Shown here: positions 2,859 to 23,999 of the stretch, piece by piece | How the letters are laid out: each line of letters starts with the position of its first letter | Numbering within the stretch: position 1 is the stretch's first letter | The notes under the pieces: model-generated | Told to the model about the DNA's origin: nothing | The model's database searches: none | The model's input: the letters and a program-made list of their open reading frames with translations, nothing else | Assembly: GCF_019880245.1 (NCBI RefSeq) | Contig: NZ_CP082286.1 | Coordinates: 676,521 to 700,520 of the forward strand | DNA from: Halobaculum roseum | Lineage (GTDB): Archaea > Halobacteriota > Halobacteria > Halobacteriales > Haloferacaceae | DNA: 24,000 nt | Direction: 5' to 3' | Translations under genes and position numbers: made by a program

Positions 2859-2863
2859 ATCAC

Positions 2864-4057: not shown

Positions 4058-4862
4058 TAATTTCATAGCCTCGAATGAGGGTTCGTTCTTCCTAATCGCA
4101 GGGCCATGTGTAATCGAATCAGAAGAACAGGTAATGGAAACAGCGCATAAACTGAGCAAAATCACGGACCGTCACGAAATTGACTTGATATTCAAGAGCT
4201 CGTTTGATAAAGCAAACCGGTCATCAATCAGTTCCTACCGCGGCCCTGGAATGGAACGAGGGCTGGAAATCCTTCAGCAGGTTAAAGATGAGTACGATCT
4301 TCCGGTAATAACAGATTTTCACGTTCCTGAACAAGCTGCACGGGTCGCAGAAGTGGTTGACGTTCTCCAAGTGCCTGCGTTCCTCTCACGACAAACCGAT
4401 ATGCTTACTGCTGCCGGAAAAACAGGTCTGCCGATCCATGTAAAAAAAGGGCAGTTCCTCTCAGCGGACGGAATGGATAATGTCATCAACAAAATAGAAT
4501 CCACAGGGAATGAACAGATCATGCTCTGTGAACGCGGTGAGATGTTCGGATACAACAATCTCGTCGTGGATATGCGGAATCTAGACATCATGAAAGAACT
4601 CGACAAGCCGGTCGTTTTTGATACGACACATTCGGTACAACGTCCGGGCGCACGCGGTGACTCCAGCGGCGGCGACCGTCGGTTTGCACCGACATTGGCT
4701 CGAGCAGCACTCAGTGCGGGAGTAGCAGGTATTTTCGCGGAGGTACATCCGAATCCACCGTCAGCGAAATGTGACGCCGCTACTCAGCTTCCCCTCAATG
4801 AATTTGAATCGCTTGTCAATCAGTGGAAAGCGATTGATGAAACGGTTAAAAATGGCAAGTAA
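4044..4862 (+). CDS. kdsA: 2-dehydro-3-deoxyphosphooctonate aldolase (Kdo-8-phosphate synthase), Cys-type (metal-dependent class)
   Basis: Near full-length by-eye alignment to KdsA: LIAGPCVIES, FKSSFDKANRSSISSYRGPG, ITDFHVPEQA, VDVLQVPAFLSRQTD, HVKKGQFLS, CERG..FGYNNLVVDMRNL, VFDTTHSVQRPG, SGGDRRF, GIFAEVHPNP..AKCDAATQLPL. The ATG overlaps the kdsC-kdsB stop by 14 nt. Confidence 0.95.
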   Translation: MKISDNFIASNEGSFFLIAGPCVIESEEQVMETAHKLSKITDRHEIDLIFKSSFDKANRSSISSYRGPGMERGLEILQQVKDEYDLPVITDFHVPEQAARVAEVVDVLQVPAFLSRQTDMLTAAGKTGLPIHVKKGQFLSADGMDNVINKIESTGNEQIMLCERGEMFGYNNLVVDMRNLDIMKELDKPVVFDTTHSVQRPGARGDSSGGDRRFAPTLARAALSAGVAGIFAEVHPNPPSAKCDAATQLPLNEFESLVNQWKAIDETVKNGK

Positions 4863-5844: not shown

Positions 5845-6026
5845 CTATTCCTATTAAATATTATAGTGATGGTTTATTCGACAAATCTTAAATATGCTGT
5901 GTTGGTTACCAAATTCGTGATAGGCTTGTGATTGTCGCTACGACTCTTTAACCGGTATGCGATATCTTCACCCGAGGCCTTTTATTGAACACAACATTTA
6001 TATATTAAACTTTACTTGATACAGCC

Positions 6027-6899
6027 ATGAGCAAATTTGAGCGTTTTATTCAAATTACAAGAGAAGAAGGTTTTTTTGAAGCACTAAACCGGGGCTTAAT
6101 ATTTGGTGCTAATCAGTTGCCTGGATGCATTTGGTCACCATTCATTATTTATTCATTATATAAAGATGGTAGAGAGATTCAAGACATAAAGTATTTGTTA
6201 GATAATAGCAGGGATCGGCATGATGCCTTAGTAGGTCCGAATCTATTATATTCTTATTCATCGTATCCAGGATTACGGACTCGAGCCCTGCATTACTATA
6301 GATACGTGTTAGCTACCAACTTACTCATCGGGACAGAACCGGACAGAGTTTTAGACATTGCTGCTGGAGTAAGCTATGGAACTCATATTTTGAAAGCAAA
6401 ATTAAATAGCGATTTTGAGTATATAGCAGGCGATATCTCAGCAGATGCGCTCGTCTACGGTCAAAAATATTATTCACCGGAGAGTAGCGTCCAAGCAGAC
6501 GCCCATCACTTACCACTTGATGGCGATTCAACAGACATAGTCCTATCTTTTGAGACAATGGAACACATTCCAAACGTAGACAAATATTTGACAGAGTTGA
6601 ATCGGATTGTTCGCCCCAATGGCGAGTTATTTATTAGCGTTCCAAATGATGAAGATATAGATTCAAAAGGAGATCACGACGTTAAAAAGTATCCGCATGT
6701 ACACGTGTTTGATTATGAAAAATTTCGAAATAAACTAAACAGCCATTTTCCCGAAAGGTCCCTGACCATATATGCACAAGAGCGGCCTGAGAGAGTGATA
6801 AGGCCGGGAGAGATTCTAGATTTACCTCCTGGATTTATAGAATTAGATGGTGAATGTGAAATTACAGAGCAAACAACCCTACTAGCACACGTCAACTAG
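6027..6899 (+). CDS. Class I SAM-dependent methyltransferase with a ~100-aa N-terminal extension of unknown function
   Basis: Motif I is RVLDIAAGVSYGTHIL, post-I is YIAGDISADAL, motif II is DIVLSFETMEHIPN, and motif III is LNRIVRPNGELFISVPN. Confidence 0.85.
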   Translation: MSKFERFIQITREEGFFEALNRGLIFGANQLPGCIWSPFIIYSLYKDGREIQDIKYLLDNSRDRHDALVGPNLLYSYSSYPGLRTRALHYYRYVLATNLLIGTEPDRVLDIAAGVSYGTHILKAKLNSDFEYIAGDISADALVYGQKYYSPESSVQADAHHLPLDGDSTDIVLSFETMEHIPNVDKYLTELNRIVRPNGELFISVPNDEDIDSKGDHDVKKYPHVHVFDYEKFRNKLNSHFPERSLTIYAQERPERVIRPGEILDLPPGFIELDGECEITEQTTLLAHVN

Positions 6900-7029
6900 G
6901 TCGAAGATCCTACCAAAATTACCTCTACCTCCCATATCAGCCGCGTGGTAGGGTCTCCGCAAAAATATAACCCCATCTACTAGTGACGATGGGTTGTTGT
7001 GCGGTTGTTCGAAAGCTAAAGAAGTAGTG

Positions 7030-7262
7030 CGAGCTGGATGGGTTCGATACAAAGAAAAATCACATCGTAAAGGTTCGGTTGTATACACCGATGTTGGCAC
7101 TGCTAGTAAGTCATTAGATGCTGGCGGTAGTGACGGAATATGCCGATGACCAGGCCAAAGCGCTAGGACCTTCCAGTCGCCGACCAAGCTCATCCCTACT
7201 ATCTGGATGAGTTCCCCGGCTACTCGCCACTGCCGCTGTTGGAGAACCTCATCAAGATATAG
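7030..7262 (+). pseudogene. Decayed C-terminal remnant of an IS1595-family-like transposase
   Basis: Two frames separated by stops and frameshifts read ...HRKGSVVYTDVGTASKSL... and ...ADQAHPYYLDEFPGYSPL...*. These resemble the conserved (G)xxVxTD and YLDEFxFR blocks of the IS1595 DDE C-terminus. There is no intact ORF. The 134-aa minus-strand ORF over this region looks non-coding. Confidence 0.35.
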
Positions 7263-7516
7263 AAATCCAAAGCCAACTGCCGACACTACAGGAAACCCTC
7301 AGTACCGCTACACAACCAGGGTTGGACTTTAATTAGAACGTACGACCTAAAGAATATCTGTCGATGCTGTCACCAACCGGTTTCGGTCGGTACCAGCGTT
7401 CGCATCGACTTCTGCAAGGGTAGCGTTCCGACATCCATGTGATACCCCGATGTTGGATACCAGGTTTTAGAACTTCAATAGAAAGAAATAGGTCTCTCTA
7501 ATATATTCCTATCAAC

Positions 7517-8851
7517 ATGAACTCCGTTGTGTTTTTAAGTGTAGACTGTCTTCGTGCTGACCATCTCGGCTGCTATAATTACGAGAGGCCGACTTCACCA
7601 AACATAGATGATTTCGCTAACTCCGCGACTATCTACAAGCATGGGTATGCAAACTGTCCAGGAACTCGATGGGCTTTCCAATCCCTCCACACGGGTGTTT
7701 ATACGCATCAAATTGATGGACTAGGAATCCCGGATAGGTATACACCGTTAGCAGCCCTTTTTTCGAACGCAGAATACGCAACTGGCGGATTCGCGGTGAA
7801 CGCTTTCGTGAGCCGGGAGTACAATTACAATAGGGGATTCGATACTTTCTACAGTGTTTCAGAAGCCACAGGCACGAAGCCGATCATCAAGCGTATCGGT
7901 AAGAAAATTAGTGATAAAGTAGACAACGAGCGGTTGGATGAGTGTGTTCTTAAACCGGTCAATAATATTCTCCGAAACCAGTCAACAGGAGATTCAAACG
8001 AATATAAACCGAGTCATACGGATAAAGATTCGGTTGATCAGGCACTTCATTTTATCGAACAACAACAAACTGCCGACAATGAGTTCTTCTGTTGGGTCCA
8101 TTTTATGGACGCCCATACCCCGTACGGCTACTGGCCAAAACATCTCGAAGCAATCCGGGGAAATAGCTCTATTGAGCACACAATTCAACCCGGCGAGGAA
8201 GGCAAAATTGCCGTCGGCGAAAATCCCCCAAAAGACGTAATCGATACCTACGATGCCTGTATCAGGAGTGTTGATGAACAAATTGGACGGGTCCTATCTG
8301 CAATCGACGAAAACACGACAGTGATACTGACCGGTGACCACGGCGAGGAGTTCGGTCAATACAACGACTTCCACAGTGCCTCGCTATACAGCAGCATGAC
8401 GCAAGTGCCAATCATCGTCCGCACCCCGTCAATTCCAACCGGTATCGTTGAGACCCCCGTCCAGCATTTAGATTTACCACCGACAATGTTAACAGCAGCG
8501 GGGATTTCAGTTCCAGATCACTTCGAAGGCGTGTCCCTCCAGACAATCAACCGTACCTCTACTGACCCGATTTTCTTCTCGTTGGGCAAAAATCAAATCG
8601 CCGTCCGGAAAGGGATCTATAAGTATATCGAGGAAAACGGCTCAACGGAACTCTATCGCGTTCCCCACTCGGGACAAGAAACCGACTCCGTACTCAACGA
8701 GAATAAGGAAATCGCCGAAAAATTACAGAAGCTTATTGAGGACCACCGACAGAGGCAGAGTATCGGCGAAGGCAAATTAGAATTGTCTAAGGGGCAAGAT
8801 GATCTCTCCGACGAGATTGAAAAGAACCTTGAAGACCTAGGCTACCTATGA
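7517..8851 (+). CDS. Sulfatase-fold (alkaline-phosphatase superfamily) hydrolase/transferase with a divergent active-site motif
   Basis: N-terminal VVFLSVDCLRADHLG (metal-binding Asp region), NCPGTRWAFQSLHTG at the position of the C/S-x-P-x-R signature, HFMDAHTPY, and TGDHGEEFG (GDHG block). Confidence 0.88.
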   Translation: MNSVVFLSVDCLRADHLGCYNYERPTSPNIDDFANSATIYKHGYANCPGTRWAFQSLHTGVYTHQIDGLGIPDRYTPLAALFSNAEYATGGFAVNAFVSREYNYNRGFDTFYSVSEATGTKPIIKRIGKKISDKVDNERLDECVLKPVNNILRNQSTGDSNEYKPSHTDKDSVDQALHFIEQQQTADNEFFCWVHFMDAHTPYGYWPKHLEAIRGNSSIEHTIQPGEEGKIAVGENPPKDVIDTYDACIRSVDEQIGRVLSAIDENTTVILTGDHGEEFGQYNDFHSASLYSSMTQVPIIVRTPSIPTGIVETPVQHLDLPPTMLTAAGISVPDHFEGVSLQTINRTSTDPIFFSLGKNQIAVRKGIYKYIEENGSTELYRVPHSGQETDSVLNENKEIAEKLQKLIEDHRQRQSIGEGKLELSKGQDDLSDEIEKNLEDLGYL

Positions 8852-8949
8852 ACACACCACTATAGTTCCGTTTCAGACCTAAATCGCCACTTCTCTGAAC
8901 AATATCAGGTGTCTCTCGAATACGATGTTTCGGTCATACACCGCTTATA

Positions 8950-8964
8950 GTAGTCATAGCGGAT
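8950..8964 (+). repeat. Upstream copy of an exact 15-nt direct repeat GTAGTCATAGCGGAT
   Basis: Identical 15-mer at 9136-9150. The flanks are also similar (cgcttata|GTAGTC... versus cgctaat|GTAGTC...). Confidence 0.8.
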
Positions 8965-9039
8965 TCATCTATATGAGGCAGTAATGCTAGTTCTGTCAGG
9001 ATAGGAAGATTATTCAGGGACGTAGTAATACACCTGCAT

Positions 9040-10056
9040 ATGTTAGATTGGGAAGACCAAACTGTCCTAGTGACGGGCGGAGCCGGGTTTATCGGTTGCT
9101 TTCTTACGGAGAAGCTTCTCGGCCGCGACGCTAATGTAGTCATAGCGGATAACTTCTCACGTGGCGACTTCAACAAAATATCTCATCTCGAAGACGAAAT
9201 CGAGATTCGTCCCGTCGATTTGACGACACACAAAGGCTGTGTCGAAGCTACCGAAGGGGTTGATCAAGTTTTCCATCTTGCCGCTTCAGTAGGTGGAATC
9301 CACTATATTCAGCGAGAGAATGTCCATGGTCTTACTCCATCGGTGCTCATGAACCAGCACATGCTGGAAGCCGCGAGGATTAACCATATTGAGAGCTTTA
9401 TGTTCGCCTCCTCTGCTTGTGTCTACCGGCAACAACATGACGGTCTGAATCGGTTTTCTGAGGAGCAAGCTATTCCAGCCAATCCTCACAGTACATACGG
9501 TTGGGCGAAGATTCTCGGTGAGGTCGCTTGTGATGCATATCACACAGACACAAGTGTCGATACTGGCGCTGTCCGTATCTTCAACTGTTACGGTCCACGC
9601 GAGAGCCTTAACCCTGACAGTAGCCATGTTATTCCCTCTCTGTGTCGTAAGGCTATCGAGGCCGAAGACGGGGATAGCATCGAGCTCTTCGGTGACGGCA
9701 GTCAAGAACGCGGGTTCATCTACGTTACCGACTTGGCTGAAGGCATGATTAGAGCGATGGAAGAGAAAACCGATGGCGAACCCATTAATCTCGGAAATGG
9801 CGACGAAGTCGTCTCTATCAATGAACTCGCAGAAACAATTGTTGATATCAGTGGTAAGGACCTCGAAATCGAACACGACCTCTCGAAGCCTACAGGGACA
9901 GACAAATATGCTATCGACGATACGAAAATGAAAAACGAACTCAATTGGGAACCAAGTATATCGCTCAAAGAAGGGCTCGAAAATGTATATGAGTGGGCAG
10001 AGTCTGAGCTCGAAGGAGCTAAGCAGAAAGCAGTCGCAAACGGAGGAAACCAATGA
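9040..10056 (+). CDS. NAD-dependent sugar-nucleotide epimerase/dehydratase (extended SDR), paralogue 1
   Basis: Rossmann motif VLVTGGAGFIG; catalytic SSACVY ... YGWAK (S...YxxxK); RIFNCYGPRE; 338 aa. Confidence 0.92.
   Translation: MLDWEDQTVLVTGGAGFIGCFLTEKLLGRDANVVIADNFSRGDFNKISHLEDEIEIRPVDLTTHKGCVEATEGVDQVFHLAASVGGIHYIQRENVHGLTPSVLMNQHMLEAARINHIESFMFASSACVYRQQHDGLNRFSEEQAIPANPHSTYGWAKILGEVACDAYHTDTSVDTGAVRIFNCYGPRESLNPDSSHVIPSLCRKAIEAEDGDSIELFGDGSQERGFIYVTDLAEGMIRAMEEKTDGEPINLGNGDEVVSINELAETIVDISGKDLEIEHDLSKPTGTDKYAIDDTKMKNELNWEPSISLKEGLENVYEWAESELEGAKQKAVANGGNQ
9136..9150 (+). repeat. In-gene copy of the exact 15-nt direct repeat GTAGTCATAGCGGAT (encodes VVIAD of epimerase 1)
   Basis: Identical to 8950-8964, 186 nt upstream. 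Confidence 0.8.
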
Positions 10057-13675: not shown

Positions 13676-14653
13676 ATGATGCGCTACGAGTGGCTCGATG
13701 AAAGCATAGACGAGCTCGCCGAGCGCTACGATGCTGGCCAGTCACTCCGAGAGATCGCAGACGAGTTCGGCGTCTCGACACCGACGATCCACAACCGGTT
13801 GAAGGACCACGACGTGTCGATGCGAAACGGCGGTCCGGAGTACGTCCGCTTGGAACACAGAACCGACGAACTCGTCGCCCAATACGTCGACCACGACCGC
13901 TCCGCCCAAGCGATCGCCGACGACTACAACACCTCTCGTGCGGCGATCCGGTATCACCTCGAACAGGCGGGTGTCGACTACACGCCACCCGCTTCGAAGA
14001 CGGCGGACCTCGATTTCAACCCGTATCAGGTCTCGCTCATTCAGGGCGAACTCCTCGGTGATGGGTGCCTCCACCGTCGAACGGACGAGGGGTGCTTCTT
14101 CCAGCTCTCGACGACAACGGAGTCACATGCGGTGCGACTTATCGAGAACCTTCCCGAGAGCCTCTTTCCGGACGGCCAGCCAAACAAGTTCACCCGGGAG
14201 AATCACTTCAACGGGGAGGACTACACGATGTGGACGGTCACGTCACGTCCTCAGTCGCGCTTCGAGCAGCTGTACGAGGATTGGTACGAAGTTCGGGAGG
14301 AGAACAACCGGAAGGTCGTCCCGGAGGCGTTCACTCTCGACAGGACCGCGCTCCTCCATTGGTATTGGGGCGACGGGAGTTGTTCGATTCGTGACCGCGG
14401 AGCACCCCGAGTCAGTTTCGCAACACACGGGTTCCCGGAGGCCTCCGTCGAACACCTCCGATCCGAACTGGATCGCCTGGGCTACGACAACTACGCCGTG
14501 GAACAGACGCACGTCGAGGACGGCTCCGGCCTGTTCATTCGCCTCCGAGACTACGACGCGCGCTCATTTCTGGAGGACTTCCGCCGGTTCAGTTCGCTCC
14601 CCGAGTACGACCACAAGTTCCCGGTTCCGATACGGGAGGACGAGTCCGTGTAG
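13676..14653 (+). CDS. Free-standing double-motif LAGLIDADG homing-endonuclease-like protein with two N-terminal HTH modules
   Basis: Two LAGLIDADG-type motifs are present, IQGELLGDGCL and LLHWYWGDGSCS, about 100 aa apart. The N-terminus has two sigma-70-region-4-like HTHs (GQSLREIADEFGVSTPTIHNRLKDH; RSAQAIADDYNTSRAAIRYHLEQAG). Confidence 0.85.
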   Translation: MMRYEWLDESIDELAERYDAGQSLREIADEFGVSTPTIHNRLKDHDVSMRNGGPEYVRLEHRTDELVAQYVDHDRSAQAIADDYNTSRAAIRYHLEQAGVDYTPPASKTADLDFNPYQVSLIQGELLGDGCLHRRTDEGCFFQLSTTTESHAVRLIENLPESLFPDGQPNKFTRENHFNGEDYTMWTVTSRPQSRFEQLYEDWYEVREENNRKVVPEAFTLDRTALLHWYWGDGSCSIRDRGAPRVSFATHGFPEASVEHLRSELDRLGYDNYAVEQTHVEDGSGLFIRLRDYDARSFLEDFRRFSSLPEYDHKFPVPIREDESV

Positions 14654-14693
14654 GGTTCTCAGTCACTGTCTGCGACTGTAACCACCGCCCCTA

Positions 14694-15212
14694 ATCACCT
14701 ACGCCCACCAGCGCGACCAGAACGGGCTCGCACACGCCCTCCTCACCGTCGAGGAGCACATCGACGACGACTTCATGCTCATCCTCGGCGACAACGTCTT
14801 CGAGGCGAACCTCCAGGACGTGGTTCGCCGACAGGCCGAGGACCGAGCGGACGCCGCGTTCCTCGTCGAGGAGGTCCCGATCGAAGACGCCTCACGCTAC
14901 GGCGTCTGTGACACCAACAAGTACGGCGAGATCGTCGACGTGGTCGAGAAGCCCGATGACCCGCCTTCCAACCTCGTGATGACCGGCTTCTACACCTTCA
15001 CCCCCGCCATCTTCCACGCCTGCCACCTGGTGCAGCCCAGCGACCGCGGGGAGTACGAGATCAGCGACGCGGTCGGATTGCTCCTAGAGAGCGGCCGGAC
15101 GATCGACGCGATCCCGCTGGACGGCTGGCGGCTGGACATCGGGTACCCCGAGGACCGCGACGAGGCAGAGCGTCGCCTGAGCGACGAGGTGGAGCCGGAA
15201 GCCGAAGCCTGA
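14694..15212 (+). pseudogene. 5'-truncated sugar-phosphate nucleotidyltransferase (RmlA/GalU-like); N-terminal ~75 aa including the GxGTRLxPxT loop are missing
   Basis: The frame is open from the stop at 14679 and reads ITYAHQRDQNGLAHALLTVEEHIDDDFMLILGDNVF...VEKPDDPPSNLVMTGFYTF...GEYEISDAV...DGWRLDIGYPEDR. This matches the central and C-terminal parts of the NTP_transferase fold. No N-terminal nucleotide-binding loop is present, and the only ATG is internal (14775). Confidence 0.8.
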
Positions 15213-15444: not shown

Positions 15445-15915
15445 TCACGGAAGTCCAGACTGCGTGTTGAGGACCTGTTCGTCAGTTGCGGTGACAGCGG
15501 CCCACCACATCGTCAATACGGCGAGCGTGACCAACTCTGGAGGATGAGTCTCACTGATGCACGACTGCTCGTGTCGCGACAGCTCATCAGGCGGGTGGAA
15601 ATGGAGAACCGGATGGTCTGTGGCCTGGTTGGACGCTTCCCGCCCGAACCGGAACTCGAGTCCCTTCTCCCGGTAGTGGTTCGTGTAGTCGCCGTTCTCC
15701 CACCATTGGATATCGAAGTATCCACCATCCTGGTGGATTCCTGGAGCGACTGTCACTCTCGCCTCTCGAACCCTCCCTCGTTTCTCCGTGAATTCGTCGT
15801 GCTGCGTGTGGCGAAACCGAGGCGCACGGAAGCCTTCGTCGAGTTGGTTCGCGATCGTGTTGACGCTGGTGAGGATCGCGTCCGAATCGAGCGGTGATCC
15901 GTTTCCCATCACCAT
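15445..15915 (-). CDS. 156-aa protein, putative toxin/effector partner of the upstream wHTH protein; paralogue of 20091-20597; distant DUF6516/TumE-like signature
   Basis: YFDIQWWENGDY...LEFRFGREASNQATDHPVLHFHPPDE parallels FYVIQWIESDRD...LMLGWHQDETHMDLGECHLQIDHQGE in the 168-aa ORF. The start overlaps the stop of the upstream gene (ATGGTGATG). Confidence 0.75.
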   Translation of the reverse strand: MVMGNGSPLDSDAILTSVNTIANQLDEGFRAPRFRHTQHDEFTEKRGRVREARVTVAPGIHQDGGYFDIQWWENGDYTNHYREKGLEFRFGREASNQATDHPVLHFHPPDELSRHEQSCISETHPPELVTLAVLTMWWAAVTATDEQVLNTQSGLP

Positions 15916-16538
15916 TTCTGAACTCGCAGTTCGTCGGAAGCGCCCTCGAACTCATCCGCCGCAGGGGTGCGTCGCTTCGCCTGTTGGATACGGTACGCTG
16001 CACGGAGGTACTCGAAGTCCCGCATCGCTGTCCGCCAGTGCGACACGTCCGTCAGCTCTTGTTCGGAGAGTTCCCGGTCGGAAACGAGGAGTTCTTCGGG
16101 GGATTCGGTGTCGTACGCGTCCCGGTACTCGGCGATTTCGGCCTTCAGGTCCTGGATCTGTTCGACGACGTCACCGGCGGTCGCAAGCTGGTGAATCTGC
16201 TCGATGAGATGCCGGTCGGGGTCTCGTTGGTAGACGGTCCCGGAGTCGGTGTGTCGAGCACTCGCGACGCCTTCCTCCGCGAGCGCCTTGAGGGCAGTTC
16301 GGGCCTTGCTCTCGGAGACGGCTGCAATATCGGCGATCTCGTTCGCCGTCTTTGGTGTCACCGTCCGCTTGATCACCGCTCGGAGTCGCTCGTCCGCCGT
16401 GGTTGACTCCTTCCACTCCGCTCTCGCGAACTCGTTGATATCGTCGAACGCTGCTCCGTCCCCATCGAACGGCGAGATATCTTCGGGAGAGACCGGTTCC
16501 TCAGGGACGTCTTCGGCGCTGGGAAACTCGTCGGCCAT
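15909..16538 (-). CDS. wHTH + coiled-coil DNA-binding protein (putative antitoxin/regulator), paralogue of 19524-20081
   Basis: Acidic N-terminal tail, then TADERLRAVIKRTVTPKTANEIADIAAVSESKARTALKALAEEGV (wHTH), then a helical region (VEQIQDLKAEIAEYRDAYDTESPEEL). Colinear similarity to the 187-aa ORF (TARERVREI...; IASIQADIDEWKSRFDVESWDEL). Confidence 0.8.
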   Translation of the reverse strand: MADEFPSAEDVPEEPVSPEDISPFDGDGAAFDDINEFARAEWKESTTADERLRAVIKRTVTPKTANEIADIAAVSESKARTALKALAEEGVASARHTDSGTVYQRDPDRHLIEQIHQLATAGDVVEQIQDLKAEIAEYRDAYDTESPEELLVSDRELSEQELTDVSHWRTAMRDFEYLRAAYRIQQAKRRTPAADEFEGASDELRVQKW

Positions 16539-16680
16539 GTCATTCTCTTACATCTATCGCCACATATCTTCATAGTTCAGAAATGTGGTCTACAGGCTGA
16601 GCAGGCCCAGTGCCTCGGGGCTTGACCCCGAAGCGGTTCACCGAGAGAGAATTAAGTGAGTTAGTGCCAAACGAGTATCT

Positions 16681-16932
16681 ATGGCCGTCGACCTCACAGA
16701 ACGCGTACAGGAGATCGCGAAGGCACGTGATGTCTCCGAGTCGGAGGTGCTTGAGCAAGCCCTCGAGCGGGGCGTCGAAACCCTGTGGCAAGACCTCGTT
16801 CTCTCTCGATATCTGAACGATGAGATCCCGCGCGAAGAAGCGGTCGAACTCGCCGGAGTAGACCGCGTCAAACGCGCAGAGCGCGAGGCCGAAGCCGTCG
16901 AAGAGGATGTGCGGTGGGGCTTGAACGCGTGA
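16681..16932 (+). CDS. UPF0175-type antitoxin-like protein
   Basis: 83 aa. LVLSRYLNDEIPREEAVELAGVDRV matches the UPF0175 core (al.lY..g.is...Aaelag). The stop overlaps the GTG of the downstream PIN stub (GTGA). Confidence 0.72.
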   Translation: MAVDLTERVQEIAKARDVSESEVLEQALERGVETLWQDLVLSRYLNDEIPREEAVELAGVDRVKRAEREAEAVEEDVRWGLNA

Positions 16933-17108
16933 TCGTCGCCGTTGCTGACACCGGCCCACTCATTCACCTTGGCGAAATCGATTCTCTTGACCTCTGTTCG
17001 GTCGTCGACAAACTACTCATTCCAGAGACTGTCTATGAAGAACTTCAGGCCGGCGGACCTCCGTCCGAACTCGCCGACATTGAAATTGAGAATAACCGAC
17101 ACATATGA
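16929..17108 (+). pseudogene. Truncated PIN-domain (DUF3368/COG2405-like) toxin; only the first ~59 codons
   Basis: VIVAVADTGPLIHLGEIDSLDL...LLIPETVYEEL matches the N-terminal third of ~150-aa DUF3368-type PIN proteins, then stops. No continuation was found in other frames. Confidence 0.6.
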
Positions 17109-17218
17109 CAACTAACATCCGACGGGCTGTATCGAACATCACACAGCTACCAGCTCTCACTGTCCTGCTCGTGGGTGGCGGCATCATCTAAGTCTGTACT
17201 CAAACATGTATTACCTGC

Positions 17219-18088
17219 TCAGCGGCGTCGAACTGTATCTCCGTCGCGCTCGAGAATCTGCTTTGCGACTAGTCGATCAATTGCTTCATCGACGGTGTCT
17301 TTCTGGTCGTCCGAAAGTGCTCGCACATTCGCGAGAACTCTATTCCGAAGTACTTCGACGTTGTCGATCCCATCGTCAACAGCACCCAGAACGGTATATT
17401 CGACCTCGAACTCCGTCGCGAACTCTGCGATACGAGCGGTGAACTTGTTTGGGAGCCCCGACAGTGAGTTTACCGCTATCTCGATAGTGAACAGGGGATG
17501 CGAACGATCACGGATCTGCCGTGCTTCAGTCGTGCCGGTATTGAAGGGTCGCTGTTCGTCGATCTCAGTGAGGATTGATTCGTAGTCCAGCCCACGCTGG
17601 GCGTATTTCCGCATATCTTCGATGTCACGTCGACGGCCACTCGCTAGATCACCGCCGGAAACCGCTTTCAGCAGGAACATATCCTCATCCGAGAGGATGA
17701 ACGCTGTTACCAAACTCCCGGTCCAGAACTCTTCGGCCCGGTCGCGCATCCGGTCGGTGATCCAGACTTTCCCGACGATCTGCTGTTCGAAGATATCGAT
17801 TCGAAAACCGCGCTTGTCGTGATGCAGTTCGACGGTTTTTCCGACGCCCTCGAACGACTCCGTTGGTTCGTCGACAACCGTGAATCCCTGTGACGTGAGC
17901 GTCTGGTAGACGTGTTCGAACTCAGAAAGAACACCCACCGCAAGATCGATATCTTCGGTTTGGTCTTTCAACCCCCGGACCGTCATCGCAGATCCGCCGA
18001 GGAGATACACCGTCACGGACTCCGATAGCCAGGTATCGAACTCCTCGAGGAACTCTTTGACCGCCTCGCCACCTTTGAATACCGTCAT
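17219..18088 (-). CDS. Pol-beta-superfamily nucleotidyltransferase (AbiEii/MNT-like) with a ~110-aa extra C-terminal domain
   Basis: NTase signature LLGGSAMTVRGLKDQTEDIDLAV (hG[GS]x9-13DhD), with a downstream helical region ILSDEDMFLLKAVSG...RRRDIEDM. The C-terminal part ends in a wHTH-like DRLVAKQILERDGDTVRR. ATGA overlap with the upstream regulator gene. Confidence 0.85.
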   Translation of the reverse strand: MTVFKGGEAVKEFLEEFDTWLSESVTVYLLGGSAMTVRGLKDQTEDIDLAVGVLSEFEHVYQTLTSQGFTVVDEPTESFEGVGKTVELHHDKRGFRIDIFEQQIVGKVWITDRMRDRAEEFWTGSLVTAFILSDEDMFLLKAVSGGDLASGRRRDIEDMRKYAQRGLDYESILTEIDEQRPFNTGTTEARQIRDRSHPLFTIEIAVNSLSGLPNKFTARIAEFATEFEVEYTVLGAVDDGIDNVEVLRNRVLANVRALSDDQKDTVDEAIDRLVAKQILERDGDTVRRR

Positions 18089-19056
18089 ACTACACCGTAC
18101 TGCTCTTTGAGCGCCATAAATTCTGATTCACTTGGAAGGACGACAGGGATCTCGTCCGAGTCTTCGACCCCTTCCTGTGGTGCCTGGTACATCGCAGCGA
18201 CCGTGGTTTCCAGATCGTACCACGTTGCCGTTTCTGTGAGCGTCTCCTGGTCGATATCTAACGCCTCGATCAACAACATTGCATAGCTAACCCGGCGGGA
18301 GCCGCTATCGAGGGCAAGCGTGTGACACACCACTTCGCCCGGTGTGAGTTCCTCGTCGGGCGCGTACCAGAACGCGGGCTCACCTGCAAGGAAGAATTGT
18401 AGCCCGTAATCCTCGAATCGACCAAGCCCGGTCACCTGCCAATCTGGTGCGTCTAGTAGCGCGTCTGTATCTTCAGTGGTCTGCACGCGGACGAGTGTTC
18501 GTTTCGGGTCGCACCACTCGATAGTCGCACTCGGCGCGATATCCCGGGCTCGCGATCGGTGCTCGTGGGTCACGACGGCCTGCGCGAACGCCAGCAGCGG
18601 TGCGAGGTCCTCACTTACCGCGTAATCGGGGCCGGACGGGGACAGCATTGCCCGGTTTTTGAGCGGCGACAGCGCCTTGTGAACGCCTTGTCGAGTAATC
18701 CCGAGTCGCTTTGCAATCTCGGATACTCGACGGGGTTCGTCGAGAAACCAGCACACTTTGAGGGCGGCGGGCGAGAGGAGGTCAGCCCATTCAACGTGAT
18801 TGAGCTTCGACTGCAGCGTCCGGTACGCTTCAATGACCGGGTGGTCCGCGACACGGACTTTCCGCTGGTTGTTGGGCCTACGGCGTTCGATCAAGAGCCC
18901 CGCGTCCAGCAAGTCATCGAGCACCTCGTAGATGTGTGTCTGTGAATACCCGGTTTCAGTTGCGAGATCCACTGGCGTCGCTTCTCGGCCGGTACTCAGA
19001 GCGTCAATCACGGCGATTCCGGCCTTTGAAATCACTGTGTATACCCTAAACCCCAT
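18085..19056 (-). CDS. Double winged-helix transcriptional regulator with a ~170-aa C-terminal domain (AbiEi-like putative antitoxin)
   Basis: wHTH 1 is IAVIDALSTGREATPVDLATETGYSQTHIYEVLDDLLDAGLLIERRR. wHTH 2 is LKVCWFLDEPRRVSEIAKRLGITRQGVHKALSPLKNRAML. The start may instead be GTG at 19035 (see the promoter feature). Confidence 0.85.
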   Translation of the reverse strand: MGFRVYTVISKAGIAVIDALSTGREATPVDLATETGYSQTHIYEVLDDLLDAGLLIERRRPNNQRKVRVADHPVIEAYRTLQSKLNHVEWADLLSPAALKVCWFLDEPRRVSEIAKRLGITRQGVHKALSPLKNRAMLSPSGPDYAVSEDLAPLLAFAQAVVTHEHRSRARDIAPSATIEWCDPKRTLVRVQTTEDTDALLDAPDWQVTGLGRFEDYGLQFFLAGEPAFWYAPDEELTPGEVVCHTLALDSGSRRVSYAMLLIEALDIDQETLTETATWYDLETTVAAMYQAPQEGVEDSDEIPVVLPSESEFMALKEQYGVV

Positions 19057-19059
19057 TCG

Positions 19060-19067
19060 TATATAAA
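19060..19067 (-). promoter_or_regulatory. TATA box (TTTATATA on the minus strand) for the wHTH-NTase operon
   Basis: It lies only 4 nt upstream of ATG 19056 but about 28 nt upstream of the in-frame GTG at 19035. That geometry fits a leaderless haloarchaeal transcript starting at the GTG. Confidence 0.45.
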
Positions 19068-19127
19068 GGCTTCTGGATTTAGGTTGACAATCGAGTTATT
19101 CCGGTACGATGTCTGCGAGTGCGTTCT

Positions 19128-19382
19128 CTAGAGACCCGTGGAATTGCCAACTCGCCCGCTTGAACGCCCCGCGGTCTGGATGTCGAGTTCTTCACCGGAT
19201 TCGTCCACTTCCCAATTCAGGGTCCCGAAGCAATGTACTTCGCAGAGTTGGCGGACTGCCTGTGCATCGATTACGATTGCGCCGGTCGATGTCGTCCAAC
19301 GTATACCGTCGTCATTCAAATCCGGTGCGTTGGCACGCTCATCGACGTCGGTCTTCAGTTCATTGCCCGGTTCGTCCATCAT
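19128..19382 (-). CDS. Hypothetical small acidic protein (84 aa from the ATG-ATG)
   Basis: This is the only frame in the 19.06-19.52 kb gap with halophile-like acidic composition (MMDEPGNELKTDVDERANAPDLNDDG...). The competing plus-strand ORFs are Arg/Ser-rich off-frame products. No recognisable motif. Confidence 0.4.
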   Translation of the reverse strand: MMDEPGNELKTDVDERANAPDLNDDGIRWTTSTGAIVIDAQAVRQLCEVHCFGTLNWEVDESGEELDIQTAGRSSGRVGNSTGL

Positions 19383-19492
19383 CTCCCACAGCAGGCCGAC
19401 CACAGAACGGGTGCCAAACGACACGCCTCGTACGTGTCGTTCATCCCGTCTCGTCTATTACTCTATCTCGGATATCTGTGACCCATCCAAAG

Positions 19493-19500
19493 AAATAATA
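19493..19500 (+). promoter_or_regulatory. TATA-like box AAATAATA for the 19524 gene
   Basis: Centred about 27 nt upstream of ATG 19524, consistent with a leaderless mRNA. The listed ORF start 19518 is a GTG two codons earlier. Confidence 0.4.
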
Positions 19501-19523
19501 GAAGAAGCCGCGTATCGGTGAGT

Positions 19524-20081
19524 ATGACTGACCGTGGACTCGACTCGTGGACTGACGACCTCACTGCACGAGAGCGTGTACGAGAGATCGCGACGACGAT
19601 CACCGAACCGCGATCTGTCGACTGGGTCCGTGAAGAAGCGCAGGTGTCGTCGTGGCAAACTGCGAAAGACGAGCTGGAGATGCTGGTCGACTTCGGGCAA
19701 GTACAGGCTGTTGAAGGCGACGACGGAAACAGGAAGTACGCGCCGAACTACCAGCGTCGCTACTTCGACGAGGTGGCCGAGTTGATCAACACGCACACGC
19801 GAGCAGAACTTCGTGATGAGATCGCCTCCATTCAGGCAGACATCGACGAGTGGAAGAGCCGATTCGATGTCGAATCCTGGGATGAATTAGAAGCGACGCT
19901 CACTGATGACGCCCTCGACAGTGAGGGGATTCGAGAGCGCAACCGCATACTACGCCAGTGGGAACGATACGAGGACAACAAGCGTCTCCTCAAACATGCG
20001 CTTGAACTCTACGACGACGCCCGGGAGCTTCACCCGGGCCGGAACGATTCATCGAACGCTTCGACCCCAGTCTCGCAGTAA
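19524..20081 (+). CDS. wHTH + coiled-coil DNA-binding protein (putative antitoxin/regulator), paralogue of 15909-16538
   Basis: LTARERVREIATTITEPRSVDWVREEAQVSSWQTAKDELEMLVDFGQV (wHTH), then RAELRDEIASIQADIDEWKSRFDVESWDELE (helical). Colinear with the 209-aa ORF. Confidence 0.8.
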   Translation: MTDRGLDSWTDDLTARERVREIATTITEPRSVDWVREEAQVSSWQTAKDELEMLVDFGQVQAVEGDDGNRKYAPNYQRRYFDEVAELINTHTRAELRDEIASIQADIDEWKSRFDVESWDELEATLTDDALDSEGIRERNRILRQWERYEDNKRLLKHALELYDDARELHPGRNDSSNASTPVSQ

Positions 20082-20090
20082 GATCGCTTA

Positions 20091-20597
20091 ATGATCTTTC
20101 TCGCAAACCGCGCGAATCTCGACGCCCGAAGACTACTCAATCGAATTCACAACCAACTACAGACACAGGTTTCGAACGATACCTCTCCAGTTGAGCAGGT
20201 GTGGTATCATACGTCTACTGGGAACAAAATCGGGGTCCGGGCGACAGTCACACCAGACCGATTTCTCGGCACCTCATACCCTGTGGATGAAGCGGAATTG
20301 CAGGTCTCGTTTGACGTTCCGAAGACCCACCCATACGACTTCTACGTGATCCAGTGGATCGAATCGGATCGGGACCTCATGCTCGGATGGCATCAAGACG
20401 AGACGCATATGGATCTCGGTGAGTGCCACCTCCAAATCGATCACCAGGGTGAAACCGTACAGCGGGAGACAGCCGAGTTTCTCGATGCACATCCGTTGAA
20501 CGTGTTTGACCGGCGAATCGATGATCTCGTGGATGTTCTCGATGTGGTGACGTGGGAAGACGGCGTCCCTCACCTCCCGAACGAAGCAGTCCGTTGA
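20091..20597 (+). CDS. 168-aa protein, putative toxin/effector partner; paralogue of 15445-15915; distant DUF6516/TumE-like signature
   Basis: See 15445-15915. It starts 9 nt after the upstream gene. Its stop codon lies within a few nt of the right end of the IS element. Confidence 0.78.
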   Translation: MIFLANRANLDARRLLNRIHNQLQTQVSNDTSPVEQVWYHTSTGNKIGVRATVTPDRFLGTSYPVDEAELQVSFDVPKTHPYDFYVIQWIESDRDLMLGWHQDETHMDLGECHLQIDHQGETVQRETAEFLDAHPLNVFDRRIDDLVDVLDVVTWEDGVPHLPNEAVR

Positions 20598-20750
20598 CAT
20601 CCTCCCCGCGCTGAAGCGCGAGGATTCCCACGTTGGGATATTGTGGTTTACGACGTGACCTGCTTTCGCGGTGCGAAGCATCCGCTCTCTTGGTCGAACA
20701 GGTACGTCGATGGCTGTGCCAACCAGCCGTTACTCCTATCCTCTGACCGA
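20575..20750 (-). ncRNA. Predicted TnpB omega-RNA (reRNA): scaffold overlapping the tnpB 3' end and the right-end hairpin, plus a flanking guide (limits approximate)
   Basis: Established TnpB architecture places the guide RNA at the tnpB 3' end and the right end of the IS. A bulged hairpin at 20599-20625 (ATCCT-CCC-CGCGC TGAA GCGCG AGGAT) sits between the tnpB stop (20648) and the IS end. No transcript evidence is available. Confidence 0.4.
20599..20625 (-). repeat. Right-end sub-terminal hairpin of the IS
   Basis: 10 bp in two helices with a 3-nt bulge and a TGAA loop (plus-strand reading). Confidence 0.65.
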
Positions 20751-21922
20751 GGACTTGGAGATACTTTCTGCCGGATGTTCTCAGCAGCGTTCACGTCCGC
20801 GTTCGCCACCGCGTCGCACTCGTCGCACACGTACAACCCGCGCTCCACACGGTTCGCGTCCCGCTTCTTCCCACAGGACGAACACGACTTCGACGTATCA
20901 CGCTCGGACACCAGTTCGACCGTGATGCCTTCCATCTCGGCTTTGTACTCAAACATCGAGGTGAAGCGGTCGAACGCCCACGAGTGCAAGTCGAGATTCC
21001 CGTGCGTTCCCCAGTCTTTCGACTTGTCGTTCCCCTCGTCTTCGCGGATACCAGAAAGGTCGCCCACCACGACCGTTCCAACACCTTCCTCAACACACCG
21101 CTGGACGATATGCCTGGAGAGCGTGTGGAAGTAGTGGGTTCGACGCTCCGACTTCTTCTGGTTCAACCGCGAAGCTTGGCGGGAATCAGGGTCGTCACAC
21201 TGGGCGAGACGCTTGCTGAAGTAGTAGTCGTCCTGCTTCAGACAGTTCAACGGGTACAGTTCGCCGTGACCGTTTTCGTAGGCGAGCGCGGCAAAGTTGT
21301 TGATCCCGAGATCAACACCCATCGTCTTTTCACCGGGAGCTTCAGCGACGTCAATCTCGATCCTGCAGACGAACTGTAGTCCCCACTCGTCACCAGTCCA
21401 GACTGCCCGAACCTGTTGGACGCTCTCCACGGCGGAGAGGTCAACGTCCGGGCGGATCTGGTACTCGCAGAGAGTGAAGTCCGACCAATACTCCTTGAGA
21501 CTCGATCCTTTGGAGAGTCGGACTCTCTCATACTCGGTGTCGAGTTTGAAGCCAGCGGTCTTGAACGTGACCGTGCTTCGCGGGTGGTCGTCGCCGTGTT
21601 TGCGGTACTTCGGCGGGTTCGCTCTCGTGTCCCCGTTGCGTCGTTTACCGTACCAGCCGTTGAACGCTTCAGCGAGTTCCTGAAGGACTCGCTGACTTGA
21701 CTGAGAATGCAGGTCATCATAGCGTTCGTGCGACTTCAGGTACGAGGTGAGTTCGTTGTGACCAGGGATGTGGCCGATTTCAGCCCATACGCGGTCACAA
21801 ACCCACCGTCCGACATTCCAGAGTTTCGAGGCGGCGACTCCGAGCGAATTGAGGTCGTCGGACACCTGTTCTTGGTTCCGTATGGAAGCAGTGTAGGTGC
21901 GGGTGACGACCTGTTTCGCCAT
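20648..21922 (-). CDS. tnpB: TnpB (IS1341-type RNA-guided endonuclease, OrfB_IS605 + Zn ribbon)
   Basis: RuvC-I is MGVDLGINNFAA. The zinc ribbon is CSSCG...CDEC. RuvC-III is ANADVNAAENI. The WAFDRF...FEYKAEMEGITVELVSERDTSKSC block is present. 424 aa. Confidence 0.95.
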   Translation of the reverse strand: MAKQVVTRTYTASIRNQEQVSDDLNSLGVAASKLWNVGRWVCDRVWAEIGHIPGHNELTSYLKSHERYDDLHSQSSQRVLQELAEAFNGWYGKRRNGDTRANPPKYRKHGDDHPRSTVTFKTAGFKLDTEYERVRLSKGSSLKEYWSDFTLCEYQIRPDVDLSAVESVQQVRAVWTGDEWGLQFVCRIEIDVAEAPGEKTMGVDLGINNFAALAYENGHGELYPLNCLKQDDYYFSKRLAQCDDPDSRQASRLNQKKSERRTHYFHTLSRHIVQRCVEEGVGTVVVGDLSGIREDEGNDKSKDWGTHGNLDLHSWAFDRFTSMFEYKAEMEGITVELVSERDTSKSCSSCGKKRDANRVERGLYVCDECDAVANADVNAAENIRQKVSPSPRSEDRSNGWLAQPSTYLFDQESGCFAPRKQVTS

Positions 21923-22044: not shown

Positions 22045-22269
22045 GGCTTTCTCCTCATATTTCCGTATTCGTCCCACAAGACAGCCCGCCGATGCTGACA
22101 CCCAGTAAGTGACGCATGGAACGTCTGCGTCTTGAACCCGTCGGGCTGCCCTCGGCCTGAAATCCTAACGCTCGGGATTCCCACGACTGTAGGCGTGGGA
22201 GAAGGTCAAGATGTAAAACCGAGACGAGTCGCCGAAATCATTGTACGCAATGCATACATTGCGAATAGT

Positions 22270-22560
22270 ATGGGAACGATCTCGGCACGCGTGCCCGATG
22301 AATTGGAAGCAGAACTCGAGGCATACCTCGAAGACGAAAACCTCGACCGAAGTACGGCTGTTCGAAAGCTTCTCTCGGAGGGGCTTGCTGAGTGGCAGCG
22401 CCAACGAGCACTCGACCAACTTGCAGCTGGAACCACCTCGTTCGGTAAAGCGGCCGAGCTGGCGGGGATGTCCGTCTGGGACTTTGCACAGCTCGCCAAC
22501 GAACACGATATCACCTGGGTGGCCGACGAGCATCTCGACTCGGACCTCGAGGCGCTGTGA
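22270..22560 (+). CDS. RHH + UPF0175-type antitoxin-like protein
   Basis: MGTISARVPDELEAELEAYLEDENLDRSTAVRKLL (ribbon-helix-helix-like), then LAAGTTSFGKAAELAGMSVWDFAQLANEHDI (UPF0175 core). The listed ORF starts at 22132, but homology and composition begin at ATG 22270. Confidence 0.75.
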   Translation: MGTISARVPDELEAELEAYLEDENLDRSTAVRKLLSEGLAEWQRQRALDQLAAGTTSFGKAAELAGMSVWDFAQLANEHDITWVADEHLDSDLEAL

Positions 22561-22683: not shown

Positions 22684-22868
22684 TGGGGGAGAGCAAGCAG
22701 CCACGTATCACTCGATTCGTCAGTAACGTTCGCACCAAGTTGTTTCGAAGAAGTTAGTCTATTACTGTACTGAGACACCAGGTGCGGGTACAGGGAGGTG
22801 GGCGAACCAGTTCCCACCATTGGGGAGGAGAGCAACACCTTTTGTGTTGGAGCCTGTAACAACGGTTG

Positions 22869-23210
22869 ATGCCGGGGGACGACGATGACGAGGCAACGCA
22901 GGTACTCGACGTCCGCGAGCGGTTTCCCGAAAACGCGACGTACGTGCAGATCAGTGCGTACCACGTCCCCCGCTCAGACCGCTACCCCGACGGCGTCAAG
23001 TATTCGATGCAGTACGGGCACACGAACGCTCCTGACGGCGAAGATGGCACGATCATCCGGTACGACAACTTTCCGGATCATCCTGGCGCACCGGTCCATC
23101 ACAAACATACAGAGGACGGAGAGATCGAGTCGATCGCGTTCGACGGCCTGCGCGAACTCTACCGCGAGTTCAAACACGAGGTGAGAGAAAATGACGAACC
23201 CTGGGACTGA
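22869..23210 (+). CDS. DUF6516 / TumE-like toxin-family protein
   Basis: VKYSMQYGH...DGTIIRYDNFPDHPGAPVHHKHTEDGEIESIAF matches, from memory, the RYDN...HHKH signature of that family. ATG at 22869 (the listed start 22866 is a TTG). Confidence 0.78.
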   Translation: MPGDDDDEATQVLDVRERFPENATYVQISAYHVPRSDRYPDGVKYSMQYGHTNAPDGEDGTIIRYDNFPDHPGAPVHHKHTEDGEIESIAFDGLRELYREFKHEVRENDEPWD

Positions 23211-23628
23211 CCCCGAAGAGACGACCGAGAACCGCATCATGCACATCCGGTTCGCCACGGGCAATGCTGACCGCGTCGAGGAGGCGCTGGCGGCACTCGA
23301 CCGTGGTGATGAGCCGGTTCCCTACCTCGAGCGCGTCTACCGTGACGTCGACAACCTCCACCGGGTGACGCGACCGAAGAATCTGGAGCTCCTCCGCGTC
23401 CTCGCGAGCGAACAACCGGAGAGCATCCGGGAGACAGCGCGCCTCGTCGACCGTGATGTCCGGCAGGTTCACCGGAACCTGGAAGAGCTGGAGGAGCTGG
23501 ACCTGATCAGTTTCGAGAGCGAGGGACCGGGGAAGCCGAAGCGGCCGCACGTGTGGTACGACGAGATCGCCGTCGAACTCCCGCTGACCGCCGGCGACGG
23601 AGCGAACGAAGACTCTGTCGAGGCGTAG
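23191..23628 (+). CDS. wHTH DNA-binding protein (TumA-like / MarR-ArsR-like putative antitoxin)
   Basis: RPKNLELLRVLASEQPESIRETARLVDRDVRQVHRNLEELEELDLISFE...GKPKRPHVWYDEIAVEL. It overlaps the upstream gene by 20 nt. Confidence 0.8.
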   Translation: MTNPGTDPEETTENRIMHIRFATGNADRVEEALAALDRGDEPVPYLERVYRDVDNLHRVTRPKNLELLRVLASEQPESIRETARLVDRDVRQVHRNLEELEELDLISFESEGPGKPKRPHVWYDEIAVELPLTAGDGANEDSVEA

Positions 23629-23701: not shown

Positions 23702-23738
23702 CCCCACCCTAAACGCCTTCGGCGTTTTGAGGGTGGGG
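23702..23738 (-). ncRNA. Long hairpin at the tnpB stop codon, probable omega-RNA scaffold element
   Basis: CCCCACCCT-AAACGCC-TTC-GGCGTTT-tg-AGGGTGGGG: about 16 bp with one 2-nt bulge. It spans the last codons and the stop of the partial tnpB. Confidence 0.5.
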
Positions 23739-23999
23739 CTTGTCCGTGAACTCGGCGTCGAACCCTTTCGGGTGGGCGGTGAATCCGCCACTCGGCGTCA
23801 CTGTTCCAGACTTCAGGGCGAGCTGACTGTCGCCCGTCCGCCGAGACGACTGTTGACCTCGACGGACATACCGCATCCCGATGTTCTTTGCCGCGTTGTA
23901 ATCCGCGTTCGCCTCTGACTCGCACTTCACGCAACGGAAGTCAGTGCGAGTCGGGCGATTCTCGTCTACTGTGAACCCACACTCGGCGCACCGTTTCGA
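23709..23999 (-). CDS. tnpB: TnpB, C-terminal fragment (continues beyond the window end)
   Basis: The frame is open to the window edge: SKRCAECGFTVDENRPTRTDFRCVKCESEANADYNAAKNIG..., i.e. the zinc ribbon plus the RuvC-III motif. Confidence 0.85.
   Translation of the reverse strand, partial: SKRCAECGFTVDENRPTRTDFRCVKCESEANADYNAAKNIGMRYVRRGQQSSRRTGDSQLALKSGTVTPSGGFTAHPKGFDAEFTDKPHPQNAEGV

Follow-up and report, generated by a model that had tools for sequence, protein, structure and literature searches.

In the TumE-TumA superfamily, which was defined in 2023 (Durairaj et al., Nature 2023, PMC10584680), the toxin is TumE (DUF6516, PF20126). For six gammaproteobacterial pairs, the study showed in Escherichia coli that TumE is toxic, is neutralised by its partner and inhibits translation. 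Its fold was described there as a seven-stranded antiparallel sheet with two helices packed on it, without a counterpart in the PDB, and in most clusters the TumE gene follows that of a diverse DNA-binding partner (PMC10584680). A search of the literature for TumE in archaea gave, beyond the original study and preprint, only one passing mention in each of two unrelated papers. Here, we analysed a 24,000-nucleotide stretch of Halobaculum roseum (the window; assembly GCF_019880245.1, contig NZ_CP082286.1, positions 676,521 to 700,520 of the forward strand) which carries two two-gene modules, A and B, each made of a gene for a DNA-binding-type protein followed by a gene for a smaller protein. The two modules are best explained as two copies, long diverged, of a single two-gene module that is widespread in haloarchaea. 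As the current Pfam TumE model matches the A-type second gene, they would be placed by sequence as a divergent branch of the published TumE-TumA superfamily and not as an unplaced family.

The four genes of the two modules are the following.
15909-16538, minus strand: A1, 209 aa, with an acidic N-terminal tail, a winged helix-turn-helix (wHTH) and a C-terminal coiled coil
15445-15915, minus strand: A2, 156 aa, A-type TumE-like, with the motif ...HYRE..LEFRFGRE...HFHPP
19518-20081, plus strand: B1, 187 aa from GTG 19518 or 185 aa from ATG 19524
20091-20597, plus strand: B2, 168 aa, B-type TumE-like, with the motif GWHQDETH..LGECHLQ
All four open reading frames (ORFs) lie exactly where the first-pass annotation of this DNA had put them, and the gene junctions that it described are present: the stop codon TGA of A1 overlaps the start codon of A2 (AAATGGTGATGG), while the stop codon TAA of B1 is followed by 9 nt and then by the ATG of B2. 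For B1, a start at ATG 19524 is more likely than at GTG 19518 because of the promoter spacing given below and of the deposited gene call (185 aa). The A2 sequence has a 100% identical counterpart among the proteins of Halobaculum roseum, and the gene order of the window is also found on GCA_039520945.1.

The homology proposed earlier for the first proteins was confirmed by BLASTP (26% identity over 114 aa, E 3e-8), in agreement with the two example alignments that had been given for them. Both belong to the Pfam family DUF7342 (PF24033), with scores above the gathering score of 31.6 bits: B1 matches over the full model length (E 5e-56, 189.3 bits) and A1 with 83 bits (E 2.8e-23). The earlier view that neither protein of the module could be assigned to a family is therefore superseded, the first genes being DUF7342 and the A-type second gene being matched by PF20126.5. 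Sub-threshold matches to TrmB, GntR and ArsR suggest a winged HTH at about residues 20-100 of DUF7342 proteins, followed by a helical coiled coil; in A1, sub-threshold TrmB/GntR/HTH matches of the Pfam scan fall on residues 60-97, and the DUF7342 profile gives weak matches to wHTH regulators when compared with the PDB. The family has no assigned function in Pfam and no mention in the literature searched, and our analysis adds to it a near-obligatory pairing with TumE-like genes. A1 is presumed to be a TumA-type antitoxin and the autorepressor of module A, and B1 to be the antitoxin and autorepressor of module B, while A2 and B2 are the presumed toxins of the respective modules.

The pairing was followed in a census, a motif-based scan of GTDB species genomes centred on the B-type, in which pairing was scored with local hidden Markov models (HMMs). 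Sixty loci were recovered, all from Halobacteria or from metagenome-assembled genomes of halophiles. By an automatic rule, a same-strand DUF7342 ORF ends no more than about 20 nt upstream of 58/65 B- or C-type ORFs in these 60 loci. Inspection added four further pairs (three C-types whose genes overlap DUF7342 by 4 nt, and one ORF with a 63-nt gap), which brings the paired total to 62 out of 65, and the remaining three are gene fragments. DUF7342 pairing was also found at 3/3 A-type and 7/7 D-type loci, and in nearly all cases the paired genes overlap or are at most 20 nt apart. The two-gene organisation of both modules is toxin-antitoxin (TA)-like, as the first-pass annotation had called it.

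The census of B-type loci also turned up the further TumE-like subtypes downstream of DUF7342 genes. C-type proteins have 190 aa and the motif GFHCEPNPH..LHYQ, and their genes overlap the DUF7342 genes at three loci (L025, L038 and L050). D-type proteins have 145 aa and the motif RWDRHPNDHNTREHFHPPPD, and are encoded on 143 haloarchaeal plasmid records. Many copies of the modules reside on megaplasmids, with 143, 52 and 45 plasmid records. Native pairs are present on pHV4 of Haloferax volcanii DS2 (L082 and L083), where all four genes are annotated as hypothetical. HVO_RS01990 is a DUF7342 protein with a B-type partner, HVO_RS21440, whereas the DUF7342 protein HVO_RS03610 is paired with HVO_RS03615, an A/D intermediate (RFDRHPNTH..HFHPPPE) that matches both the A HMM (E 6.6e-22) and the D HMM (E 2.8e-20). 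DUF7342 proteins were shown to co-diverge with their partners: HVO_RS01990, whose partner is of the B-type, has B1 as its best match (E 1e-44), and HVO_RS03610, whose partner is of the A/D-type, matches A1 (E 6e-25). The same plasmid carries a canonical DUF6516/HVO_A0114 pair (HVO_RS02390/HVO_RS02385). The HVO_RS03610/HVO_RS03615 pair adjoins a gene for a death-on-curing (Doc) family toxin and a SWIM zinc-finger gene.

At several loci (L003, L022, L025, L038, L050 and L066), modules of different subtypes are arranged in tandem or inverted, separated by no more than a few kb. Clustering of modules is therefore recurrent, though the A+B combination of the window is not. The first-pass annotation had drawn attention to the layout of the two modules, which bracket other cassettes in inverted orientation. 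This layout is present in the window, but it is not conserved, since none of the 60 B-type loci (0/60) has an A-type module within 3 kb. When the window was compared with itself, inverted or direct DNA repeats common to modules A and B amounted to short, chance-level matches. Without a DNA-level inverted repeat, the paralogy of the modules, itself upheld by the profile links described below, is ancient and not the product of a recent inverted duplication; the latter, as well as a composite element with modules A and B as its ends, was considered and rejected, there being neither a DNA-level repeat nor flanking repeats. The absence of A-type modules near the 60 B-type loci, together with the lack of common flanking DNA repeats, makes the bracketing layout look like accretion in a variable island, peculiar to the Halobaculum roseum genome, and not like a functional unit. 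No tRNA gene marking an integration site was found in the window. The L003 locus, from Natrinema sp. CBA1119, also has a canonical TumE/HVO_A0114 pair and a TnpB gene, and TnpB genes adjoin TumE modules in L003 and L077.

The second proteins had been called clearly homologous. They are homologous, firmly so by profile comparison, but only remotely, and the resemblance is not clear by direct means: BLASTP of A2 against B2 gives E 0.5, and hhalign of the narrow A2 family against the narrow B2 family gives a probability of 0.8%. With a broadened B profile the similarity to A becomes significant (hhalign, 91% probability, E 9.8e-7). The D-type is related over near full length both to A (97% probability, E 1.1e-10, 117 columns) and to B (96.8% probability, E 2.4e-10, 122 columns), and a combined A+D profile matches B with 96% probability. 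It is because this D-type hub is significant to each of the two that we hold the A2-B2 homology to be firm. All broad-profile alignments between A, B and D, which span 90-120 columns, are in one consistent register, and an ORF of L059 that matches both the A and the B HMMs represents a sequence intermediate. Of the alignments offered in the first-pass annotation, the second-protein example YFDIQWWENGDY/FYVIQWIESDRD was found to be shifted by one strand, so that neighbouring non-homologous beta-strands were paired; in the profile register, A2 YTNHYREKGLEFRFGRE is paired with B2 FYVIQWIESDRDLMLGWHQD. Its correspondence between the histidine blocks is in register, with A2 H105-F-H107 against B2 H113-L-Q115, and the first His of the block (A2 H105, B2 H113) is the sole residue invariant across the A, B, C and D subtypes.

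Both families are restricted to Halobacteria, with 96 clusters for A and 303 clusters for B. A profile search over 1.84 billion representatives gave 68 B-type clusters and brought to light a wider B superfamily, whose motif is GWHQD..H..LG.(C)HFQ. The earlier suggestion of an expanding family holds, with at least four subtypes and multiple copies. In our local libraries of Pfam (with PF20126.4), NCBIfam, PADLOC and PHROGs, A2, B2 and distant B-type representatives have no match, and sequence-profile searches of the PDB with A, B and canonical TumE found nothing. The AlphaFold2 (AF2) models of A2 (pLDDT 91) and B2 (pLDDT 79) both begin with an N-terminal helix and end with a long C-terminal helix, with about six strands in A2 and seven in B2, and the order of secondary-structure elements is the same in the two. 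Foldseek returned nothing below E 0.1 for either model against the PDB or for A2 against BFVD.

The resemblance of the second genes to DUF6516/TumE, raised in the first-pass annotation, is supported by the Pfam matches to the A family and by the motif register. A precomputed PF20126.5 match is on record for 90 of the 96 A-family relatives listed; it is weak (<=1e-3) for A2 and unmarked, that is strong (<=1e-5), for the distant A-family member P0214. The D-type scores 17.5 bits against PF20126.4 (E 0.0043), which is below the cutoff of 23.4, and three of seven members match. The canonical motif R-Y-D-N-x-P-x-H ... H-H-K-H is recognisable in the D-type, a bridging subfamily with RWDRHPNxH…HFH (RWDRHPNDH..HFH), and in HVO_RS03615 (RFDRHPNTH..HFH), while it is degenerate in A2 (FRFGRE..HFH) and B2 (GWHQDETH..CHLQ). 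The register remains constant throughout: RWDRHPNDH..HFH in the D-type, FRFGRE..HFH in A2 and GWHQDETH..CHLQ in B2 against RYDNFPDH..HHKH. Besides, the AF2 models of A2 and B2, with two long helices and a 6-7-stranded antiparallel sheet, are consistent with the published description of the TumE fold, including the lack of a PDB match. Modules A and B are like TumE-TumA in being bicistronic, with a small alpha+beta protein downstream of a DNA-binding partner, and they resemble it in the predicted fold and, less closely, in an aromatic/His motif in the same register. They differ in that A2 and B2 exceed canonical haloarchaeal TumE (about 100 aa) by 40-60 aa and have an additional N-terminal helix and additional strands, in that the motif is degenerate and the B-type is invisible to the Pfam TumE model, and in that the partner is DUF7342 and not RelB-like or HVO_A0114. 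We consider it likely that the DUF7342-linked proteins belong to the TumE superfamily, the place of the B-type being inferred through transitive links.

Upstream of the modules, candidate promoter and operator elements are found.
19466-19502, plus strand: B-type upstream footprint, with the dyad-like TCTCGGATATCTGTGA at 19466-19481 and then the BRE/TATA-like AAAGAAATAATAGA at 19489-19502
16560-16588, minus strand: module A inverted repeat CCACAT-N17-ATGTGG upstream of A1, a candidate operator
For the B-type, 130 nt upstream of DUF7342 were aligned from 8 loci of at least 5 genera, which amount to 6 distinct sequences (L004 is almost the same as L003, and both L006 and L015 repeat L005). Two blocks alone are conserved, the dyad-like TCTCGTATATnTGnGA and the BRE/TATA-like AAAGAaATAATAGA, and their flanks are unalignable. 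In the window, ATG 19524 follows the TATA-like box at a distance of about 27 nt, a spacing that suggests a leaderless bicistronic transcript and the 185-aa form of B1; the element at 19466-19481 is then a candidate operator and that at 19489-19502 the candidate promoter of a leaderless bicistronic mRNA. The A-type module L002 has CACATAT-N14-ATATGTG at the place equivalent to the module A repeat, and the comparison of these 2-3 loci hints weakly at an operator around the promoter. A perfect GC-rich hairpin, CGGGG-TCAAG-CCCCG, lies at 16616-16630 in the 142-bp intergenic region between A1 and the divergent gene for a ribbon-helix-helix (RHH) protein; it could be an operator or a structural element.

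Altogether, we favour, with moderate confidence, the view that modules A and B are type II TA modules of the TumE-TumA kind, with DUF7342 as repressor and antitoxin and the TumE-like protein as a translation-blocking toxin; toxicity, neutralisation, autoregulation and the cellular target are those that we infer for them as follows. A TATA box about 27 nt before the first ATG would drive transcription of the gene pair into a leaderless bicistronic mRNA, with the translation of the TumE-like gene coupled to that of the DUF7342 gene. DUF7342 would dimerise via its coiled coil and bind the promoter-adjacent, dyad-like operator through the winged HTH, leading to repression, while its helical C-terminal part would sequester the TumE-like protein. 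Upon loss or degradation of DUF7342, the free TumE-like protein would block translation, probably as an RNase acting through the aromatic/His motif, of which H105 in A2 and H113 in B2 would be the invariant His.

Several observations weigh against this scheme. The TumE members that were tested are gammaproteobacterial only, and their RNase activity is proposed but unproven (PMC10584680). The local PF20126.4 model matches neither A2 nor B2 even at E<=10, a silence that differs from the precomputed matches because the local copy is older than PF20126.5, and the B-type is without any Pfam match on record. When the A, B, D and A+D profiles were compared by hhalign with canonical haloarchaeal TumE (three successively broader profiles of 15-60 haloarchaeal sequences), P was 0.01-0.15 and the probability at most 4%; these non-significant alignments were always in the same motif register. 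A single His is invariant across A, B, C and D, so that a shared catalytic site is not assured. Finally, at the L016 locus of Halopenitus malekzadehii (1481-3507), an insertion sequence (IS) element with a 278-aa transposase on the opposite strand splits the DUF7342 gene of a B-type module, and the downstream B-type gene (168 aa) is intact, which argues against strict addiction. Other explanations of this case are a polar effect on transcription and the presence of a second intact module in the same genome (L018).

The disrupted DUF7342 beside an intact partner would also suit a non-toxic regulatory pair, in which DUF7342 is a transcription factor and the second protein a ligand-binding or modulatory partner such as a helix-grip/START-like sensor. 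For both models the best PDB matches of Foldseek are indeed helix-grip or p32-like folds (START, PYR/PYL, Bet v 1, CalU16, p32), the canonical TumE His motif is mostly replaced in A2 and B2, with one His invariant, and PADLOC and defence HMMs gave no match. However, all of these Foldseek matches have E > 0.1 and TM-scores of at most 0.37, the current Pfam TumE model does match the A family, and the many paralogous copies per genome, megaplasmids, IS and TnpB neighbours, remnants and tight coupling are typical of TA modules and not of housekeeping regulators; we regard such a regulatory pair as unlikely. That A2 and B2 are unrelated, each downstream of DUF7342 by happenstance and with a chance similarity of the His block, is extremely improbable. 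It would account for the BLASTP and narrow-family results and for the one earlier alignment that was out of register, but it is at odds with the probabilities of 91-97% (E 1e-6 to 1e-10) over 90-120 columns in one register that the broad profiles and the D-type hub yield, with the two intermediates, HVO_RS03615 and the L059 ORF, and with the common order of secondary-structure elements in the AF2 models.

At least four subtypes (A, B, C and D) have radiated, and several of them can occur in one genome or at one locus. This raises another possibility, namely that the modules are anti-virus abortive-infection or defence modules which sense infection and shut down translation, the subtypes reflecting an arms race with haloviruses. 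Their clustering with TA-like cassettes, TnpB and a low-GC surface-glycan island is typical of variable regions involved in virus interaction, and the A-type module of L007 lies within a glycosyltransferase cluster. On the other hand, there is no PADLOC match, scans of IMG/VR viral contigs with the A and B families and a phage search with B1 found no relatives, and the modules of the inspected loci have no recognised defence genes (CRISPR, restriction-modification, etc.) as neighbours, which leaves a defence role decidedly unlikely. A related proposal, which we put forward as speculation and rate no higher, is that the DUF7342-linked A, B, C and D proteins are not ordinary addiction toxins but Halobacteria-specific, fast-diversifying effectors that keep only the TumE scaffold, each subtype co-evolving with its own DUF7342 sensor/repressor as an anti-virus or inter-strain conflict system. 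The B and C types, having lost the canonical His motif, could have a biochemical activity different from that of TumE.

Around modules A and B, the window contains the following features.
16681-16932, plus strand: core cassette 1, RHH (CopG-like) protein, 83 aa, RHH_1 E 7.6e-5
16914-17108, plus strand: core cassette 1, DUF3368/PIN-like stub, 64 aa, overlapping the RHH gene, with precomputed PF11848
18085-19056, minus strand: core cassette 2, protein with a double wHTH and HVO_2833_C, 323 aa, HVO_2833_C E 7.7e-53
17219-18088, minus strand: core cassette 2, overlapping second protein, 289 aa, with a GGSx13DID nucleotidyltransferase-like motif
19347-19424, minus strand: C-type remnant, 26 codons (VSFGTRSVVGLLWEMMDEPGNELKTD) inside an annotated 98-aa ORF (19128-19424)
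20603-20766, minus strand: sot0042 RNA (Rfam RF02656), 135 bits with a gathering score of 88, overlapping the 3' end of the TnpB gene
20648-21922, minus strand: TnpB (OrfB_IS605 and Cas12f-like TNB), Pfam E 6.8e-22 and 1.9e-20
22866-23210, plus strand: third module, canonical TumE, 114 aa, RYDNFPDH..VHHKH, PF20126.4 E 1.2e-14, 54.5 bits (cutoff 23.4)
23191-23628, plus strand: third module, HVO_A0114 wHTH regulator, 145 aa, with a 20-nt overlap, E 4.8e-27
The window is a TA and mobile-element patch, since a canonical TumE pair, a subtype remnant, an RHH/PIN stub and a TnpB are also present in it.

The third module lies 2.3 kb from B2 and has the toxin-first gene order, the reverse of modules A and B. 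The TumE/HVO_A0114 pair is found in the same order on 8 haloarchaeal plasmids, where it is annotated as 'DUF6516 family protein' and 'transcriptional regulator'. Such canonical DUF6516 and HVO_A0114 pairs resemble modules A and B in their clade, their plasmid or island habitat, their wHTH partner and their overlapping genes, whereas they differ in having the toxin first, another wHTH family, a shorter toxin and a significant Pfam TumE match. The C-type remnant is 69% identical over 26 aa to the extreme C-terminus of 190-aa C-type proteins (tblastn, E 1e-6), and it looks like what is left of another module, with a fourth TumE-like subtype, whose break lies immediately before the promoter of B1.

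Within the core, the 64-aa DUF3368/PIN-like stub appears to be a truncated toxin, with PDC-S70 matches that span only positions 1-55 of a profile of about 160. The genes at 17219-19056 had been labelled AbiE-like, a label that no HMM match backs: neither protein matches AbiE, DUF1814 or PADLOC models, the 289-aa protein has no match in Pfam, NCBIfam or PADLOC at E<=1 and no relative in the PDB, and the upstream protein is an HVO_2833_C member. The likeness to AbiE lies in the arrangement, a wHTH protein followed by an overlapping gene for a protein of about 290 aa, and in the GGSx13DID motif.

On the other side of B2, the TnpB element ends 6 nt past the B2 stop codon, and the sot0042 RNA probably represents both the guide RNA of TnpB and the element's right end. 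Another TnpB fragment, from the C-terminal part, is located at 23709-23930 on the minus strand. The ORF at 22132-22560 (plus strand) ends in a UPF0175 domain (E 1.3e-7), while its N-terminal part is weakly DUF6290/RHH-like; as no recognisable toxin gene adjoins it, it may be an orphan antitoxin. At 13676-15212 (plus strand), a 325-aa protein with tandem HTH and LAGLIDADG_2 is encoded directly upstream of a 145-aa NTP_transferase fragment that is without an N-terminal part; this may represent a homing-endonuclease insertion into or beside a sugar-nucleotidyltransferase gene. Positions 1-10000 of the window have a low GC content (0.37-0.48; 0.44) compared with 0.55-0.65 elsewhere in it. The block encodes a cytidylyltransferase/HAD fusion, a DAHP/KDO8P-synthase-like enzyme, an SIS+CBS isomerase, a methyltransferase and a sulfatase, followed by epimerases and a GT4 glycosyltransferase, and is probably a horizontally acquired surface-glycan island.

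The kind of system to which modules A and B are assigned is already known, and what is new is the assignment of DUF7342 as a partner family of the TumA type, by which a family without function in Pfam is given a concrete role as partner gene. Also new are the D-type as a bridging subfamily and a hidden haloarchaeal radiation of TumE-like proteins into at least four subtypes, of which B and C are invisible to the Pfam TumE model. As native modules are present on pHV4 of Haloferax volcanii, the hypothesis is directly testable in a genetically tractable archaeon, and the natural variation of the motif points to the invariant His and an aromatic residue as the first targets for mutagenesis. If the proposed toxicity is true, these modules would join the few archaeal TA families, other than VapBC and RelBE, that have an experimental basis.

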